Positions 1,128 through 6,090 of a stretch of DNA of 6,090 bases are shown here, one piece after another. The notes under the pieces are model-generated. The model saw only the letters and a program-made list of their open reading frames with translations, was not told the origin of the DNA and made no database searches. The position numbers and the translations under genes are program-made. The DNA is from a virus, in the IMG/VR virus record IMGVR_UViG_3300029415_000028, one strand, 5' to 3'. Position 1 is the first letter of the stretch, and every line of letters starts with the position of its first letter.

Positions 1128-1580
1128 ATGAGAAATTTTGCTTATATCAATCCTGATTTTGAACAGGATACCGTGGTTCCCGAATTGATCGAAGGAAATC
1201 CCTGTTACGCGCCTAGTGTATATGATTCGGTTATGTTGGAAGAATTGTCTGATGGCTCGTTTATGTATATGGATATGACTTCTATTCTCCTTAATCAGGA
1301 GAAATACCGCCGTCTCCTCGGTGACATGAATGTACAGAATATTCTTGCCCAGATGCATCCTACTCAGTCTACTACCATGGATAGTATGACTGACGAAGAG
1401 CGATTTAACTGCGTTATTTCCCGTCATTGCCAGACTATGTCAGAGAGACAAGCTGTATTACAACAGTTGGCTAATGAGAAGTCTGAATTAACTAAGTATG
1501 CGCAGGCAATGTTGGAAGAACAATTGGCAGAGAAAGAAGCAGTGCCGTCTACGGATCACGCATCTGCTCCTGAGTCATAA
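1128..1580 (+). CDS. Acidic 150-aa protein between VP1 and VP2. It is a possible internal scaffolding (VP3-like) protein, but the function is not established.
   Basis: ATG at 1128 lies 12 nt after the VP1 stop; the track's 1116 start is a TTG. The stop TAA overlaps the VP2 ATG (TAATG at 1578..1582). The protein is D/E-rich with a helical, Q/E/L/K-rich C-terminus. Its size and charge resemble microvirus scaffolding proteins. I cannot verify homology. Confidence 0.7.
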   Translation: MRNFAYINPDFEQDTVVPELIEGNPCYAPSVYDSVMLEELSDGSFMYMDMTSILLNQEKYRRLLGDMNVQNILAQMHPTQSTTMDSMTDEERFNCVISRHCQTMSERQAVLQQLANEKSELTKYAQAMLEEQLAEKEAVPSTDHASAPES

Positions 1581-2704
1581 TGGGTCTTTTTGATGCTATT
1601 GCTTCTTCTGTAGGAAACCTTACCGACAATGTTGTCGGTATGATTAACCAGAATCATCAGAATAAGGTTAATCTCCGTATGATGCGAGAGCAGAACGCGT
1701 TTAACGCTGATCAGGCTGCTATACAACGTCAGTGGCAGACTGATATGTGGGATCGTAATAATCGGTATAATTCGCCTGATGAGATGATATCTCGTGGTTT
1801 AAATCCATTTGTTCAAGGTTCTGCTGCTATGGCTGGTTCTAGGTCTCCTGCTTCAGGCGGAGTTGCTGCTACTGCTGCTCCTGTTCCTAGTATGCAGGCT
1901 TATAAGCCTAATTTTTCTAATGTGTTTCAGTCTCTTGCTTCCCTTGCTCAAGCTAAGGCTTCAGAAGCTTCTGCTCGTGAATCTGGCGCTCGCGCTAATC
2001 AAACTGATACGGTAACTCCTCTTTTGTCTGATTATTATAGAGGTCTTACTAATTGGAAGAATCTAGCTATTGGTTCTTCCGGTTATTGGAATAAGGAAAC
2101 AGGCCGTATATCTGCTGCTCTAGACCAGTCTACTGAGGCTCAGAATCTAAAGAACGCCCAGTTTGCTGAGCGTATATCTGCCGCTCAAGAGACTCAAATC
2201 CTACTTAATTCTGAAGCTCAGCGTGTTATGAATAAATATATGGATGAGAATCAACAGGCTGATTTGTTTATCAAAGCACAAACTTTGGCTAATCTTCAGA
2301 ATCAAGGTGCTCTTACGGAAAAACAGATTCAGACTGAAATTCAGCGTGCTATTCTTACTGCTGCTGAGGCTTCTGGTAAGAAAATTGATAATCGTTTGGC
2401 TTCTGAAACGGCTGATTCTTTGATTAAGGCAGCTAACGCCTCTAATGAATTGCAATATCGTGATAGTACGTATGATTATAAGAATGTTAAGCTTCGTAAA
2501 CATACGGAGTATAAAACTTCTATGGCGAATCAGAAAGCTGCTGAATATGGCGCAGACTTGGTCCGCAAACAAGGTCGTACTCATTATTGGGAGTCTGTTT
2601 CGCATGGTCTTGGTGCTATTGCTTCCGGTAGTGGCAATGTTATTGGTACCTATAATAGAGCATTCCCTCTTAAACCTATATCTGTGAAGGGTTTTGGTCG
2701 ATAA
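1580..2704 (+). CDS. VP2: VP2 minor capsid / DNA pilot protein (H-like), 374 aa.
   Basis: N-terminus is GLFDAI...NQNHQNKVNLRMMREQNAFNADQAAIQRQW...NRYNSPDEMISRGLNPF. This is the Q/N-rich block followed by 'YNSP....GLNP' that I recognise from non-phiX Microviridae VP2 proteins. An Ala/Ser/Gly low-complexity linker follows (about 1830..1990), then a long helical Q/A/E/K-rich region. The start is coupled to the upstream gene. Confidence 0.85.
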   Translation: MGLFDAIASSVGNLTDNVVGMINQNHQNKVNLRMMREQNAFNADQAAIQRQWQTDMWDRNNRYNSPDEMISRGLNPFVQGSAAMAGSRSPASGGVAATAAPVPSMQAYKPNFSNVFQSLASLAQAKASEASARESGARANQTDTVTPLLSDYYRGLTNWKNLAIGSSGYWNKETGRISAALDQSTEAQNLKNAQFAERISAAQETQILLNSEAQRVMNKYMDENQQADLFIKAQTLANLQNQGALTEKQIQTEIQRAILTAAEASGKKIDNRLASETADSLIKAANASNELQYRDSTYDYKNVKLRKHTEYKTSMANQKAAEYGADLVRKQGRTHYWESVSHGLGAIASGSGNVIGTYNRAFPLKPISVKGFGR

Positions 2705-2781
2705 CATCCTTCAGGACTAGAAGCCCATCGCGGCGTTTGAGCGATATACACCCGCTGCCCGCGTAGGGCCTGATCGAAAAA

Positions 2782-2827
2782 CGGAGCGGAGCGACTTCCT
2801 TAAAGAAGCGTTCCGCTTCGGTATTTT
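2782..2827 (+). terminator. Candidate intrinsic terminator for the genome-length transcript.
   Basis: A 16-pair GC-rich hairpin (CGGAGCGGAGCG-A-CTTC / GAAGCGTTCCGCTTCG, loop CTTAAA) is followed directly by G-TATTTT (2821..2827). It lies 78 nt downstream of the VP2 stop and upstream of the only promoter-like element. Confidence 0.4.
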
Positions 2828-2870
2828 AGCACAGCGTGCGCAAAGGCAAGACAGTTCCTGCCTTGCCGTG

Positions 2871-2894
2871 TCTATACATCTCTGTATACATCCA
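2871..2894 (+). repeat. Tandem iteron-like repeat with a 12-nt period: TCTATACATCTC / TGTATACATCCA. The exact 8-mer TATACATC occurs at 2873..2880 and 2885..2892.
   Basis: Read directly from the sequence; 9 of 12 positions are identical between the two units. The repeat sits immediately 5' of the origin-like CCACTTG/TTAATTAA motif. Confidence 0.6.
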
Positions 2895-2932
2895 CTTGTT
2901 AATTAAGCGAAGCCCCTAGTTGTGTGCGAAGC
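2892..2932 (+). promoter_or_regulatory. Candidate (+)-strand replication origin / Rep nick region. It comprises CCACTTG|TTAATTAA followed by two GCGAAGC mini-hairpin motifs.
   Basis: CCACTTG (2892..2898) plus the AT-only 8-mer TTAATTAA (2899..2906) resembles the phiX174 gene-A cleavage region CAACTTG|ATATTAATAAC, with 6 of 7 matches in the left arm followed by an AT-rich run. GCGAAGC occurs at 2907..2913 and 2926..2932. The function is inferred by analogy only. Confidence 0.35.
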
Positions 2933-3006
2933 AAATCCGAGTTATCCTCTCGGATTCTCCCGCCCCTCGTCCATAAACGCACAACTCACACTCTACGGTA
3001 GAATCT

Positions 3007-3017
3007 AAAAAAAAAAA
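3007..3017 (+). repeat. A11 homopolymer. It forms the loop of an imperfect hairpin (AGAATCT 3000..3006 / AGATTTCT 3017..3024) and sits where an UP-element would be, upstream of the -33 box.
   Basis: Counted directly: four A at 3007..3010 and seven A at 3011..3017. Confidence 0.9.
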
Positions 3018-3024
3018 GATTTCT

Positions 3025-3055
3025 TTTGGAATTATAAAAATAGTTTGTATATTTG
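3025..3055 (+). promoter_or_regulatory. Bacteroidetes-type promoter: -33 TTTG (3025..3028), 19-nt spacer, -7 TATATTTG (3048..3055, matching TAnnTTTG).
   Basis: Both consensus elements described for Bacteroides primary-sigma promoters match exactly, at the reported spacing. The context is AT-rich and about 50 nt upstream of the first ATG (3107). I found no comparable motif pair elsewhere in the window. Confidence 0.55.
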
Positions 3056-3106
3056 CCCCCAGTTAGAAGTTACAACTGTTATTAACATTTTAAACATTTT
3101 ACAATT

Positions 3107-3301
3107 ATGCAGAAATTTATTATCTCAGTTAAAGACAAAAACACTGGTCGTGATGTTATTTCGCCTTATATTGTCAATTCTCTCGATGGCCTTGGAAATT
3201 ATTCTGAGCGAATGTCTCCGTTGGGCTTTATTGTTATTGTGGATTCGATTAAAGAAGAAAATAATTTTGTTGAAATTAAAACTCAAGGTTATGAAAACTA
3301 A
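3107..3301 (+). CDS. Hypothetical 64-aa protein, the first gene after the promoter.
   Basis: It starts at the first ATG after a 400-nt ATG-free stretch. Its composition is ordinary, not the hydrophobic kind produced by frame artefacts. Its stop (TAA 3299..3301) overlaps the next ATG (3291). I recognise no motif. Confidence 0.6.
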   Translation: MQKFIISVKDKNTGRDVISPYIVNSLDGLGNYSERMSPLGFIVIVDSIKEENNFVEIKTQGYEN

Positions 3302-3374
3302 TAATATTTGGAAAATTGTGATTGGAGCTGTATCCGCTGCTCTTGGTTATATCCTTAATGCTATTGGATTATGA
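3291..3374 (+). CDS. 27-aa micro-ORF encoding one predicted transmembrane helix (MKTNNIWKIVIGAVSAALGYILNAIGL). It is a candidate holin-like or membrane partner of the downstream peptidase.
   Basis: ATG 3291 overlaps the upstream gene by 11 nt. The stop TGA (3372..3374) overlaps the peptidase ATG (3371) in an ATGA arrangement. The N-terminus carries K2 and K8, followed by 19 uncharged, mostly hydrophobic residues. It does not overlap a larger gene, so codon-bias artefact is a less likely explanation, but the ORF is very short. Confidence 0.4.
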   Translation: MKTNNIWKIVIGAVSAALGYILNAIGL

Positions 3375-3679
3375 ATGAGACTTTGATGGATTTTCTTGAG
3401 CTGTTGTTATGCTTTAATTTGCATATTACAGTGACAAGTGCCAAACGTTCTATTGCTGAAAATAAGGCTGTCGGTGGTGTACCTTCCTCTCAGCATTTGT
3501 TTGGAGAAGCCATTGATATTAAACCTTATGGTTCTACTACTTATAGTCGCTTGCTTGAGTTTATCCACAATTATTCGGATCATACTCATGTATTTGACCA
3601 ATTGATATTATATCCTACATTTATTCATATTTCATTTGGTCCTCGTAATCGTCGCCAAGTGATTGATAAACGTAAATAG
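3371..3679 (+). CDS. Minimal zinc D,D- or L,D-peptidase of the LAS / M15 type (Peptidase_M15_3-like), 102 aa. It is a probable peptidoglycan hydrolase (endolysin).
   Basis: Motifs occur in the family order. TSAKRS...N..VGG corresponds to SGYR...N..VGG. S-Q-H42-LFGEAI-D49-I is the H-x6-D zinc motif (3494..3517). F-I-H86-I-S corresponds to the terminal F-V-H-V-D histidine (3626..3628). The roughly 40-aa N-terminal segment usual in this family is missing, and there is no signal peptide. Confidence 0.8.
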   Translation: MNETLMDFLELLLCFNLHITVTSAKRSIAENKAVGGVPSSQHLFGEAIDIKPYGSTTYSRLLEFIHNYSDHTHVFDQLILYPTFIHISFGPRNRRQVIDKRK

Positions 3680-3681
3680 TT

Positions 3682-5361
3682 ATGAATTTTTCTCCTGATT
3701 TGTTTAAGGCTGTTGACCATTGTCAGCATCGTTCGTTTATCACGAATAGGTACACTGGTGCACGTATTGCCGTTGATTGCGGTCAATGCGATTATTGTAT
3801 CCATAAGCGTGCTAAAAAGGCGTCCATGCGCGTGAAAACCGCTGGAAGTGCTTTCAGGTATTCTTATTTTGTGACGCTTACGTATGATAATGAGCATATT
3901 CCTCTATTTAATTGTAAAGTTCTTCACAGTGATTATGAGGACGCCTTAGGCATTTCAGGAAATATACATTTTGGCCATGAACACCATCAATACGTTCCTG
4001 TTTCCGAGTATCAATGTAGTGATAACTCCTCGCTCCGTCATATATTTTTCGAACAAGTTCAGGGTACAGTGCCGTTTGACCGTGAAATTAAGGAATATGT
4101 TCCTGTTACGGATAATTGGTTTCTTAGTATGGATGCTATTCGCAGTTTTATCGGTAAAACGCAAGCCGTTGACAAAACGAATTATCCCGCTTCTGAACAA
4201 TACGGTTGCGATAACCTTATTCCCTTCTTAAATTACGTTGATGTTCAGAATTATATTAAACGCTTACGTAAACATTTATCCCAACAATTAGGTTCTTATG
4301 AAACGTTACATTTCTACGCTGTGGGTGAGTACGGACCCGTGCATTTCCGCCCGCATTATCATCTCTTATTATTCACAAACTCGCAAAAAGTCTCTGAGGT
4401 TCTACGATACTGCCACGATAAGAGTTGGAAATTCGGTCGTTCAGATTTCCAGATTGCCCGAGGTGGAGCTTCTTCATACGTTGCAAGTTACGTTAACAGC
4501 CTTAGTGCTGCTCCCTTATTATATCGCTCATGCCGCGCGTTTAGACCCAAATCGCGAGCATCTGTCGGATTCTTTGAGAAAGGTTGCGATTTCGTTGAGG
4601 ACGAAGACCCTTATGCGCAGATTGAGCAAAAAATCGATTCTGTCGTTAACGGAAGAATCTATAACTTCAATGGCATCAGTGTTCGGTCAACTCCACCCAT
4701 GTCGTATATCCGTACCTTATTGCCCCGATTCTCGTCTGCTCGCAATGACGATAGTGTTGCGATTGCTCGAATTCTTCGTGCTGTACACTCAACGCCAAAA
4801 AGAATTGCAAAATTCGGATTTATCGACTACAAACAGGATTCGGTTCTGAGTCTTGTTCGTACTTATTATCAATATCTTAAAGTTCAAAATATTCTTACAG
4901 ACGATGATAAAATTGTATTACATACTTCTCGGTGCCTTACTAGGTTCTGTAACAGTTCTAGTGATGTCGATATTGAATCTTATATTAATAAGTTATATCG
5001 GCTGTTCTTATATGTCTATAAATTCTTCCGTAATTGGCATCTCCCTCTCTTCGGTTCTGATATTAGCGCTTACTCCGGTCGTATTAGTTTTATCATTAAA
5101 ACAGGTATAGAATATGAAGCGAAAAAAAATTATGAAAGTCTACGAGATACATATAACATCCGTTCCCAATTCCCCGAAATCTCGGATTGTATGTTTGCGT
5201 TGCCTCAGAACGGGCAAGAGATTGATATCTTGTCGAATGTTTCACGTGAGACAATTCAGTTCCTTGAGCAACTCCGGTACCGTAGTTCTACATTCTGTCG
5301 CGATATGATTAAGCATAAGAAGCTTAATGATGCTAATGATATATTCAACCGTATGGTTTAA
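3682..5361 (+). CDS. VP4: VP4 rolling-circle replication initiator (HUH endonuclease, phiX gene-A family), 559 aa.
   Basis: Motif 1 is FVTLTY (3868..3885). Motif 2 is RPHYHLLLF, with H-Y-H at 4354..4362. Motif 3 is the double tyrosine Y266-VAS-Y270-VNS (4477..4491), compared with phiX174 A protein YVAKYVNK. The N-terminus has a Cys/His cluster (C14, H16, C33, C36, C39). The ATG is 2 nt after the peptidase stop. Confidence 0.95.
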   Translation: MNFSPDLFKAVDHCQHRSFITNRYTGARIAVDCGQCDYCIHKRAKKASMRVKTAGSAFRYSYFVTLTYDNEHIPLFNCKVLHSDYEDALGISGNIHFGHEHHQYVPVSEYQCSDNSSLRHIFFEQVQGTVPFDREIKEYVPVTDNWFLSMDAIRSFIGKTQAVDKTNYPASEQYGCDNLIPFLNYVDVQNYIKRLRKHLSQQLGSYETLHFYAVGEYGPVHFRPHYHLLLFTNSQKVSEVLRYCHDKSWKFGRSDFQIARGGASSYVASYVNSLSAAPLLYRSCRAFRPKSRASVGFFEKGCDFVEDEDPYAQIEQKIDSVVNGRIYNFNGISVRSTPPMSYIRTLLPRFSSARNDDSVAIARILRAVHSTPKRIAKFGFIDYKQDSVLSLVRTYYQYLKVQNILTDDDKIVLHTSRCLTRFCNSSSDVDIESYINKLYRLFLYVYKFFRNWHLPLFGSDISAYSGRISFIIKTGIEYEAKKNYESLRDTYNIRSQFPEISDCMFALPQNGQEIDILSNVSRETIQFLEQLRYRSSTFCRDMIKHKKLNDANDIFNRMV

Positions 5362-5378
5362 CTTTAATTTTATTAATT

Positions 5379-6090
5379 ATGAGTGATTTTAATCCGCTAG
5401 ACCGAGCGAAAGTTGCTGTGCATCGCTCCTCCTTTGATTTGTCTAGTAAAAAATTGTTTACAGCGAAAATTGGAGAAATTTTACCTTGCTATTGGCAGAT
5501 TGCCATCCCTGGTACTAAGTATCGTATTTCATCTGATTGGTTTACCCGTACCGTTCCGGTTAATACGGCTGCTTATACTCGTATCAAGGAGTATTACGAC
5601 TTCTATGCTGTGCCGTTACGACTGATTTCCCGTGCGCTTCCACAGGCGTTTACTCAGATGACGGATTATATGACTTCTGCCGCTTCTAATTCTGCTAATA
5701 CACAACAGTTGTCTAGTGTTCCTTATGCTCCTGTTGGTAACATCTCTGCCGAGATTCAGGCTCGTGTGACTGCTAAGACTGTCGATGATGCTGGTTTTGG
5801 TTTTGCTTATGGCTCTTGTAAGCTATTAGATATGCTTGGTTATGGTTCATTCATTGGTACCGGTAATACTAAGAAGAGTGATATTACTATGCAGTATCTT
5901 GGCCTTGATACTGCTTCACTGTCTGATAGTCAAAATCCTCTTATTTATGGTACTAGTATCAATTTGAATCTTCTTCCTATTTTCACTTATCAGAAGATTT
6001 ATTTTGATTTTTATTCAAACTCTCAATGGGAGAAGCATTTGGCTTATTCTTACAATGTTGATTATTGGGACGGTAAGAGCTCTGTTGAAA
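5379..6090 (+). CDS. VP1: Major capsid protein VP1, N-terminal part. It is open at the window end, and the unique portion ends at 5991 before continuing at base 1.
   Basis: I translated it by hand and found no stop from 5379 to 6090. The sequence is MSDFNPLDRAKVAVHRSSFDLSSKKLFTAKIGEILPCYWQIAIPGTKYRISSDWFTRTVPVNTAAYTRIKEYYDFYAVPLRLIS. This follows the canonical Microviridae VP1/F N-terminal pattern (RSxFDLS..K.T...G.L.P......PG......R..P........D.F.VP.RL). The ORF track omits it only because it has no stop in the window. Confidence 0.93.
   Translation, partial: MSDFNPLDRAKVAVHRSSFDLSSKKLFTAKIGEILPCYWQIAIPGTKYRISSDWFTRTVPVNTAAYTRIKEYYDFYAVPLRLISRALPQAFTQMTDYMTSAASNSANTQQLSSVPYAPVGNISAEIQARVTAKTVDDAGFGFAYGSCKLLDMLGYGSFIGTGNTKKSDITMQYLGLDTASLSDSQNPLIYGTSINLNLLPIFTYQKIYFDFYSNSQWEKHLAYSYNVDYWDGKSSVE
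5992..6090. repeat. Terminal redundancy, copy 2, identical to 1..99. It is an assembly or linearisation overlap of a circular genome.
   Basis: Exact 99/99 match to the start of the window. Confidence 0.97.

Follow-up and report, generated by a model that had tools for sequence, protein, structure and literature searches.

How does a microvirus burst its host when the one lysis-type enzyme it encodes lacks an export signal? Lysis by microviruses outside the phiX174 group is largely obscure, although they are among the most abundant phages of the animal gut; M15 peptidases have been noted in their genomes since 2012, and the crossing of the membrane by a leaderless enzyme has been left unexplained. 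We addressed this question at one locus of the IMG/VR virus record IMGVR_UViG_3300029415_000028, a stretch of 6,090 bases (the window) that is a circularly permuted, essentially complete microvirus genome. At positions 3291-3679, an open reading frame (ORF) of 27 codons, hereafter the micro-ORF, directly precedes the gene for a leaderless M15 zinc peptidase of 102 amino acids (aa). We tentatively read this locus as a two-gene lysis module that pairs a membrane-lesion peptide, holin-like and with an activity of its own, with a leaderless endolysin, a reading that, judged from sequence, we place slightly short of an even chance. The peptide itself is a strong candidate for the agent of host lysis in these phages.

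By itself, a 27-codon ORF is uninformative, as 17 ORFs of at least 20 aa lie in 1 kb around the locus. We therefore gathered relatives through the peptidase and not through the peptide, drawing on 63 and 80 IMG/VR loci plus GenBank records, about 120 related microvirus genomes in all. An [A/G]TGA overlap marks the peptidase start at 116 of 123 distinct loci, and the ORF upstream is 27 aa long in 98 of those 116 and 26-31 aa in nearly all the others. The first-pass annotation, made from this one genome without database searches, had looked to conservation among relatives as a check on the pair, and the result favours it: of the 116 related microvirus genomes in which the truncated peptidase is retained, 115 have an intact micro-ORF immediately upstream, and a diverged form is present in a distant clade.

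The substitution pattern shows what is being conserved. The 23-codon core of the micro-ORF exists in 59 distinct nucleotide versions, with mean pairwise differences of 0.104, 0.004 and 0.310 at codon positions 1, 2 and 3, and the third position varies in 22 of the 23 codons. Nei-Gojobori ratios of nonsynonymous to synonymous divergence (dN/dS) are 0.065 in the micro-ORF frame, compared with 6.4 for the upstream extension of the peptidase frame and 1.3 for the remaining frame. Given this coding-frame ratio and the freely varying third positions, selection acts on the peptide and not on a nucleic-acid element, and by this signature the micro-ORF is a real gene. The peptide is also under stronger constraint than the peptidase, whose dN/dS among the relatives is 0.21. 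Two other origins of the conservation were considered and rejected. A DNA or RNA element is incompatible with variation at 22 of 23 third positions, and a remnant of the 5' segment that the peptidase gene has lost does not fit, as the upstream translation in the peptidase frame is unlike the missing segment and that frame has the dN/dS of 6.4.

A search by alignment of the replication initiator (Rep) extended the comparison to a distant clade in which Rep is only ~31% identical. Here a 29-aa ORF, MKSETKSKIWSAIIAAAVSLLTSIAQIFS, lies 3 nucleotides (nt) upstream of a homologous 102-aa peptidase; the peptide is nearly invariant (dN/dS 0.079) and the accompanying peptidase has a dN/dS of 0.32. In two further genomes, a 31-aa type, MSTENNKKTNWITAVISAIVAALTSLLSNLA, stands upstream of the peptidase. 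The diverged types have a spacer of 2-3 nt in place of the overlap, and all four peptide types that we found have their own conserved ATG. Both genes of the window are thus real, syntenic, separately translated and under purifying selection, and their pairing recurs in three sequence types (A, B and C) across clades with Rep ~31% identical.

The peptide types share a common plan: a lysine-rich polar N-terminus, a tryptophan and then 17-21 hydrophobic or small residues to the C-terminus, so that the peptide ends in or at the hydrophobic segment. The first-pass annotation described the window product as essentially one membrane helix, and a hydropathy calculation, which is the basis of our helix assignment, bears this out for residues 9-27. 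The predicted helix is marginal by the position-independent Hessa sum (+1.4 kcal/mol) and consists of 41% Gly/Ala/Ser (35-47% across all four types). Residues G12, S15, A16, G19, N23 and G26 form a small/polar stripe within a 100-degree arc of the helical wheel, and a one-sided stripe of this kind is present in all four types. The residues before the helix carry a net charge of +2, whereas the net C-side charge is 0, as it is in all four types; by the positive-inside rule this suggests an N-in/C-out topology. A marginally hydrophobic, Gly/Ala/Ser-rich, striped helix suits a self-associating membrane peptide. No family in Pfam, PHROGs or NCBIfam matched the peptide above threshold, but sub-threshold matches to holin families recurred: phrog_443 (E 0.011-0.16, three peptide types), PF16083 (E 0.033, 14.8 bits versus 28.4) and PF16945 (E 0.014, 15.9 bits versus 26.9). 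DUF6486 (PF20096, 31 positions) reached at best 17.2 bits versus 22.7, in 3 of 10 variants, with no match to the window peptide itself.

The downstream product is an M15 peptidase of the LAS type, as had been proposed from its motifs. It matches Pfam Peptidase_M15_3 (PF08291) with 44.6 bits against a cut-off of 23.2 and the PHROGs 'endolysin' family phrog_894 with E 2.5e-16, and PF08291 is found in 120 of the 120 homologues listed. The predicted zinc triad H42, D49 and H86, together with S23, R26, N31 and G35/G36 of the S-x-x-R...N..GG block, is invariant in alignments with homologues from double-stranded DNA phages and microviruses. An AlphaFold model of the 102-aa protein has a pLDDT of 80.8; its best match in the PDB, the M15A enzyme 1LBU, is weak (probability 0.96, E 0.02, TM-score 0.37), and its significant matches in BFVD, a set of predicted viral structures, are nearly all M15/M15A-type peptidases of phages and microviruses, with E down to 8e-5. 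We take the Pfam M15_3 consensus to read H-x-D, where the window protein has S88 at the Asp position. We rejected S88 as a sign of inactivity, H-x-S being common to the annotated endolysin or peptidase homologues of phages B124-14 and Siara.

The enzyme is nevertheless incomplete and confined. The PF08291 profile is covered from position 34 to 107 of 108, leaving out the N-terminal third of the domain, and the window protein starts ~41-43 alignment columns late relative to full-length homologues (Siara, KS9, B124-14 and bajarodmic virus 1107); the missing part includes the N-terminal F-T-L-x-E-L...D-N-T-P segment, so the domain is not complete. At 102 aa it is a minimal form, other microviral M15 versions having 131-234 aa. 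Its acidic N-terminus and a maximal Kyte-Doolittle 17-residue mean of 1.59 reveal no signal or transmembrane segment. Both the loss of about 40 residues and the missing export signal had been noted in the first-pass annotation. Lacking a signal or transmembrane segment, the enzyme needs help to reach the wall. The ORF list and profile scans with Pfam and PHROGs turned up no other lysis-gene-like product in the window genome.

The association was also approached from the opposite side. A degenerate DNA pattern for the core of the peptide, run against IMG/VR, recovered 80 whole contigs. In 73 of them the peptidase follows shortly downstream, and in 71 of these the distance is identical. The remaining seven, of 5.4-6.06 kb and from five IMG/VR dataset accessions, have no peptidase anywhere: an intact micro-ORF (for example, MKRSNFWKIVIGAISAALGYILSAIGV) is followed by an AT-rich spacer of ~55 nt and then by Rep. 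Among these seven the peptide has a dS of 0.65 and a dN/dS of 0.10, indicative of purifying selection, and the full ORF list of one of them (L202) holds the usual genes minus the peptidase, with no other enzyme candidate. In the distant clade, two genomes without a peptidase carry a 32-aa type, MATTEKKNKIWSA[V/I]ISAIVSLLTSLG[S/T]ILVGQ, directly before Rep. The exact 32-aa peptide also occurs in integrated proviruses flanked by bacterial genes (L363-L365, ENA metagenome contigs), from which it follows that peptidase-less viruses with this type are temperate. Conversely, in Microvirus mar63 (L069, MZ089809) the ORF that shares an ATGA with the truncated 101-aa peptidase is soluble and 58 aa long, and a membrane micro-ORF is absent; mar63 is the sole lineage seen with the enzyme and without the peptide. 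As each gene occurs without the other, the two are usually paired yet separable, and the peptide has a role for which the peptidase is dispensable.

Some further observations concern the junction and the hosts. The peptidase-less relatives may have lost the enzyme or may never have had it: the seven genomes are scattered over a neighbour-joining tree of Rep, yet share one distinctive junction. In L161, L196, L202, L213, L221, L224 and L238, the spacer before Rep ends ...CAGGCTCTTGGTTATATG, a near-copy of micro-ORF codons A17-Y20 (GCTCTTGGTTAT, window 3340-3351), and the upstream frame of Rep reads ..QALGY-M, which hints at recombination or duplication at this junction. In L144 (IMGVR_UViG_3300029238_000092), an apparent interruption proved to be an intact micro-ORF plus a 30-nt partial duplication of its 3' end; the duplication reads MIILCNAIGL followed by a stop, lies between micro-ORF and peptidase ~30 nt before the peptidase start and is another sign of a rearrangement-prone junction. 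The flanks of the proviruses include a family-92 glycoside hydrolase, cation efflux genes and a cas3-cas4-cas1-cas2 locus, and the hydrolase suggests a Bacteroidota host. A scan of genome contigs for a host of clade A returned only distant peptidase homologues. One JGI contig with a peptide variant (L367, 11851 nt) is a tandem assembly of two related, non-identical microvirus genomes, with ORF64 (the soluble ORF upstream of the micro-ORF) and peptidase genes in each copy and the micro-ORF gene-called in one copy only; an assembly of chimeric or concatemeric origin is more likely here than a prophage.

From sequence and synteny we infer membrane insertion, topology, oligomerization, lesions, dependence of the enzyme on the peptide and a role in lysis. 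The 27-aa product would enter the cytoplasmic membrane as a single N-in/C-out helix and self-associate through its stripe of glycine and other small residues, and the accumulating peptide would cause membrane lesions or depolarization. The 102-aa zinc peptidase would be translated by termination-reinitiation at the ATGA, build up in the cytoplasm and gain access to peptidoglycan only via the lesion made by the peptide; its cutting of peptide stems or cross-links would then burst the cell. Because related viruses keep the peptide without the peptidase, the peptide would have an activity of its own and be the older or more essential part. The peptidase would be a horizontally acquired add-on that may speed up the breakdown of the wall or make it depend less on the growth of the host.

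Several points weigh against such a module. First, nine genomes (the seven above and the two of the distant clade) keep an intact peptide without the peptidase, and a pure holin that has no endolysin to accompany it would be lethal to the cell yet release no virions. The miniature holin-endolysin pair that was first suggested stands as regards adjacency and conservation, but is too narrow in the strict sense of a holin serving this endolysin. Second, the enzyme is found without the peptide, both in mar63 and in microviruses whose full-length (131-143 aa) M15 peptidase has no comparable neighbour. Third, the peptide lacks a charged cytoplasmic tail at its C-terminus and, at 26-32 aa, is to our knowledge below any validated holin in size, and a lesion that passes a folded 11.7-kDa enzyme would need a large oligomer. 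Fourth, holins are normally very diverse, whereas the peptide has the highest amino-acid identity of all products of the genome, a ranking partly biased by the choice of genomes, which leaves the dN/dS figures unaffected. Finally, the ATGA stop/start overlap reported between the two genes is indeed present, but according to the ORF map such overlaps link most genes of the window genome; the overlap alone is thus weak evidence of a functional link, and the coupling may be compaction.

The main rival to this module differs from it chiefly in the effect of the peptide on the cell: the peptide would be an autonomous single-gene lysis protein, a 'protein antibiotic' that binds and blocks a conserved membrane enzyme of peptidoglycan-precursor supply, the peptidase acting only after the envelope begins to fail. 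More broadly, a peptide of 26-32 aa alone would be the lysis protein of a large gut-microvirus lineage, its helix face docking on a conserved host membrane protein of envelope biogenesis or forming an oligomeric pore, and the M15 peptidase would be a later, dispensable gene inserted downstream. We regard this as unlikely overall, although it accounts directly for the retention of the peptide under purifying selection in the seven of 80 clade-A genomes that have neither a peptidase nor a recognizable lysis enzyme, and for the separate peptidase-less lineage, partly of integrated prophages, with its own 32-aa type. The extreme conservation of the helix face is as expected for a specific protein target. 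The precedents are small single-helix lysis proteins of microviruses and single-stranded RNA phages: the 91-aa E of phiX174 blocks MraY and the 37-aa LysM of phage M blocks MurJ (reviewed in PMC10707117). Like these, the peptide belongs to a small phage, is very short with a single predicted helix and is the sole lysis candidate in the peptidase-less relatives. However, it has no similarity to E, LysM, L, A2 or any known single-gene lysis (Sgl) family in Pfam, PHROGs or NCBIfam, and its gene is free-standing, not embedded. Its helix is only marginally hydrophobic and rich in Gly/Ala/Ser, unlike the strongly hydrophobic ones of E and LysM. Sgl phages by definition lack a muralytic enzyme, whereas the window encodes a muralytic-type enzyme and nine peptide-bearing relatives lack one; a single-gene mechanism leaves unexplained why a cytoplasmic muralytic enzyme directly follows the peptide in >90% of genomes.

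Less probable still is that the peptide is a small membrane protein with no part in lysis, contributing instead to burst size (as does K of phiX174), superinfection exclusion or the tethering of replication or assembly, in a slot between ORF64 and Rep that tolerates insertions. The occurrence of each gene without the other would fit, as would the distant relatives in which an ORF64-like gene is followed directly by Rep, which points to an insertion slot, and the overlapping junctions general in the genome. This explanation has difficulty with the pairing of types A, B and C with a peptidase that is always immediately downstream, across such divergent Rep clades, and with the lack of any other lysis candidate in peptidase-less genomes; moreover, the sole family hints, though weak, point to holins.

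We consider it quite improbable that the peptide associates non-covalently with the peptidase to anchor or activate it, making up for the lost N-terminal segment or keeping the enzyme at the membrane, although anchoring or activation was also raised in the first-pass annotation. The micro-ORF does co-occur with the truncated enzyme (101-103 aa) and not with full-length microviral M15 peptidases. However, only ~8 peptide residues lie outside the predicted membrane span, the truncated domain is predicted to fold alone with reasonable confidence, the peptide persists without the enzyme and, in mar63, the truncated enzyme persists without the peptide.

Hardly credible, finally, and largely refuted already by the sequence data is a frameshift, either -1 at the micro-ORF end or +1 from ORF64, that would yield a fused enzyme of the signal-arrest-release (SAR) kind or a tail-anchored ORF64: the peptidase frame is indeed offset by -1 from that of the micro-ORF, the micro-ORF frame continues upstream across ORF64 without a stop in 58 of 60 genomes and the helix is SAR-like in composition, but a TAA in the peptidase frame four codons before its ATG (a position occupied by a stop in 93 of 110 genomes) limits a -1 fusion to a 12-nt stretch, that short open stretch lacks a canonical slippery heptamer (X_XXY_YYZ) in 103 of 110 genomes, no nucleotide motif is conserved where 22 of 23 third positions vary freely, and the peptide has its own ATG in every type. 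The frame offset and missing heptamer had been described correctly in the first-pass annotation, whereas the fusion it considered finds no support. The open upstream frame is itself a by-product of base composition: most genes of this genome have T at 45-59% of their third codon positions, which renders +1 frames hydrophobic and stop-poor, with open runs of 69-185 codons in other genes. A multi-helix protein of 74-109 aa in the micro-ORF frame (window 3045-3374) was rejected as a shadow ORF by composition; across the ORF64 overlap, the would-be second codon position of the alternative frame is the most variable. Long hydrophobic +1 shadow ORFs at 3045-3374, 4298-4849, 4853-5110 and elsewhere could be mistaken for membrane proteins.

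Among the known systems closest to this locus are the lysis cassettes of Burkholderia phage KS9 (holin-endolysin-Rz/Rz1) and Stenotrophomonas phage Siara (peptidase-holin/antiholin-holin-spanins), which encode a homologous enzyme (35-46% identity, with the same H-x6-D...H and S-x-x-R...N..GG motifs) and likewise have a small membrane-protein gene adjoining that of a leaderless muralytic enzyme. Their annotated holins have ~105-125 aa, whereas the window partner has 27 aa, one helix and no cytoplasmic tail. The window genome also lacks antiholin and spanin genes, its enzyme lacks the first ~40 residues, its peptide type also occurs without the enzyme and the similarity to holin families is sub-threshold only. 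The homologue of phage B124-14 bears an endolysin annotation and is surrounded by hypothetical proteins.

Validated holins typically carry a charged hydrophilic C-terminal cytoplasmic domain. Measured against this class, the peptide is a small protein with a transmembrane helix by hydropathy and a gene next to that of an endolysin, but nine genomes have no endolysin, the charged C-terminal domain is absent and no holin family matches significantly. In pinholin/SAR-endolysin systems, such as S21-68 and R21 of phage 21, the SAR helix is covalently part of an endolysin exported by Sec. The peptide resembles these in its Gly/Ala/Ser-rich, marginally hydrophobic helix with a small-residue face, and a depolarizing role is plausible. 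Unlike them, the window helix is a separate polypeptide and the enzyme is leaderless, so the two separate ORFs do not constitute a SAR endolysin with a covalent, weakly hydrophobic N-terminal helix, and a pinhole would not pass a cytoplasmic enzyme. In size and in having a single helix the peptide also recalls small pore-forming type I toxins, such as the 29-aa TisB, which can collapse the membrane potential. Those toxins belong to chromosomal toxin-antitoxin loci under antisense-RNA control, and no homology to them was detected.

The positions of the locus and its neighbours are collected in Table 1. The nearest GenBank relatives of the window, uncultured microviruses, come from samples of dog, lemur and human origin, and their DNA is 78-84% identical over 59-85% of the genome.

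Table 1. Features of the window, numbered from its first base
Feature	Position	Strand	Remark
Major capsid gene	start near 5379, across window end to 1115		
Scaffold-like ORF	end at 1580		
Pilot protein gene	1580-2704		
ORF64, 64-aa soluble ORF	3107-3301	+	Heads the chain ORF64 - micro-ORF - peptidase - Rep
Micro-ORF, 27 codons and stop	3291-3374	+	Encodes MKTNNIWKIVIGAVSAALGYILNAIGL
Predicted single transmembrane helix, residues 9-27	3315-3371	+	Kyte-Doolittle 17-residue maximum 2.05
TAA stop in the peptidase frame	3356-3358	+	4 codons before the peptidase ATG; limits a -1 fusion to a 12-nt stretch
ATGA stop/start overlap of micro-ORF and peptidase gene	3371-3374	+	
Peptidase_M15_3, LAS-type zinc peptidase, leaderless, N-terminally truncated, 102 aa	3371-3679	+	
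H42 codon, first predicted zinc ligand, H-x6-D motif	3494-3496	+	Aligns with SRHMYGHAAD of 1LBU
D49 codon, second predicted zinc ligand	3515-3517	+	Invariant in alignments
H86 codon, third predicted zinc ligand, F-I-H-I-S-F	3626-3628	+	Invariant in alignments
Rep/VP4, replication initiator	3682-5361	+	Begins 2 nt past the peptidase stop

ORF64 encodes an acidic, soluble product that is conserved among the relatives (variability of 0.137, 0.053 and 0.203 at codon positions 1, 2 and 3) and matches no family in Pfam, PHROGs or NCBIfam. Its last 11 nt are shared with the beginning of the micro-ORF, and in both deep clades a soluble ORF has an overlap of this length with the micro-ORF start. More distant microviruses that have neither peptide nor peptidase have soluble ORFs of ~64 aa adjoining Rep directly; by position and size, all these soluble ORFs before Rep are presumably homologous to ORF64. 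Third-position divergence is lower in ORF64 than in the micro-ORF (0.20 versus 0.31). The ~400 nt between the pilot gene and ORF64 (2705-3106) contain no ORF of at least 60 aa. A hairpin at 2805-2819 resembles a terminator and a site at 3026-3053 resembles a promoter; this stretch may be a regulatory or origin region.

The enzyme has a published history. Roux et al. (2012) described M15_3 peptidase genes in 11 human-associated microviruses, five of them adjoining an ORF of unknown function, and argued for horizontal acquisition and a role as endolysin (PMC3394797). Later papers, including those of Kirchberger et al. in 2022 (PMC9239249) and on the Occultatumvirinae roseophages (PMC11499846), take peptidases of this kind to be the lysis gene in several groups of microviruses (see also PMC9865509). 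The remark in the first-pass annotation that M15-like ORFs occur in metagenomic microviruses was thus correct, but the enzyme and its proposed endolysin role (PMC3394797, PMC9239249) are not new. The window enzyme shares its family, virus family, proposed lysis role and proposed horizontal acquisition with those earlier reports (PMC3394797, PMC9239249, PMC11499846), and differs from them in its membrane micro-ORF partner and minimal 102-aa length. That partner is not mentioned in these four papers or in one on Bacteroidetes proviruses (PMC3091885). Neither 'holin' nor 'transmembrane' occurs in the text of PMC9239249 or PMC11499846, and in PMC3394797 'holin' refers to prophage neighbours only. 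Full-text literature searches found no paper discussing the peptide, in line with the earlier impression that such a partner had not been described.

Public annotation reflects the same gap. Exact copies of the peptide appear in public protein sets from Microviridae assemblies as 'hypothetical protein' (for example, DAH84300.1, DAL25039.1 and DAE51345.1), and the micro-ORF is unannotated in all 10 of the GenBank microvirus records examined. In Dulem viruses 226, 238 and 243, the peptidase start has been set 21 codons upstream, so that the gene crosses the micro-ORF in an unconstrained frame. The GenBank records PP511396, PP511323 and PP511601 (L003, L004 and L072) contain a deposited coding sequence of 124 aa, labelled peptidase in the first two and hypothetical protein in the third. 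Its ATG lies 21 codons upstream, where the frame has a dN/dS of ~6 and overlaps the unannotated micro-ORF, and the start is probably mis-set.

What the locus adds is therefore the partner and not the peptidase, which was already known: the peptide is the product of a robustly conserved gene whose function is, as far as literature searches show, unstudied. Recognizing it corrects the annotation of several GenBank records in which the peptidase start runs through the micro-ORF in the wrong frame. If our reading is true, the peptide could be used as a compact antibacterial, either membrane-active or target-specific. For the microviruses themselves, it offers a concrete candidate for the missing step in lysis, placed where a holin would be and kept even in relatives without the enzyme. 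Should it act in this way, it would rank as the smallest known phage protein of either the holin-like or the single-gene lysis kind.

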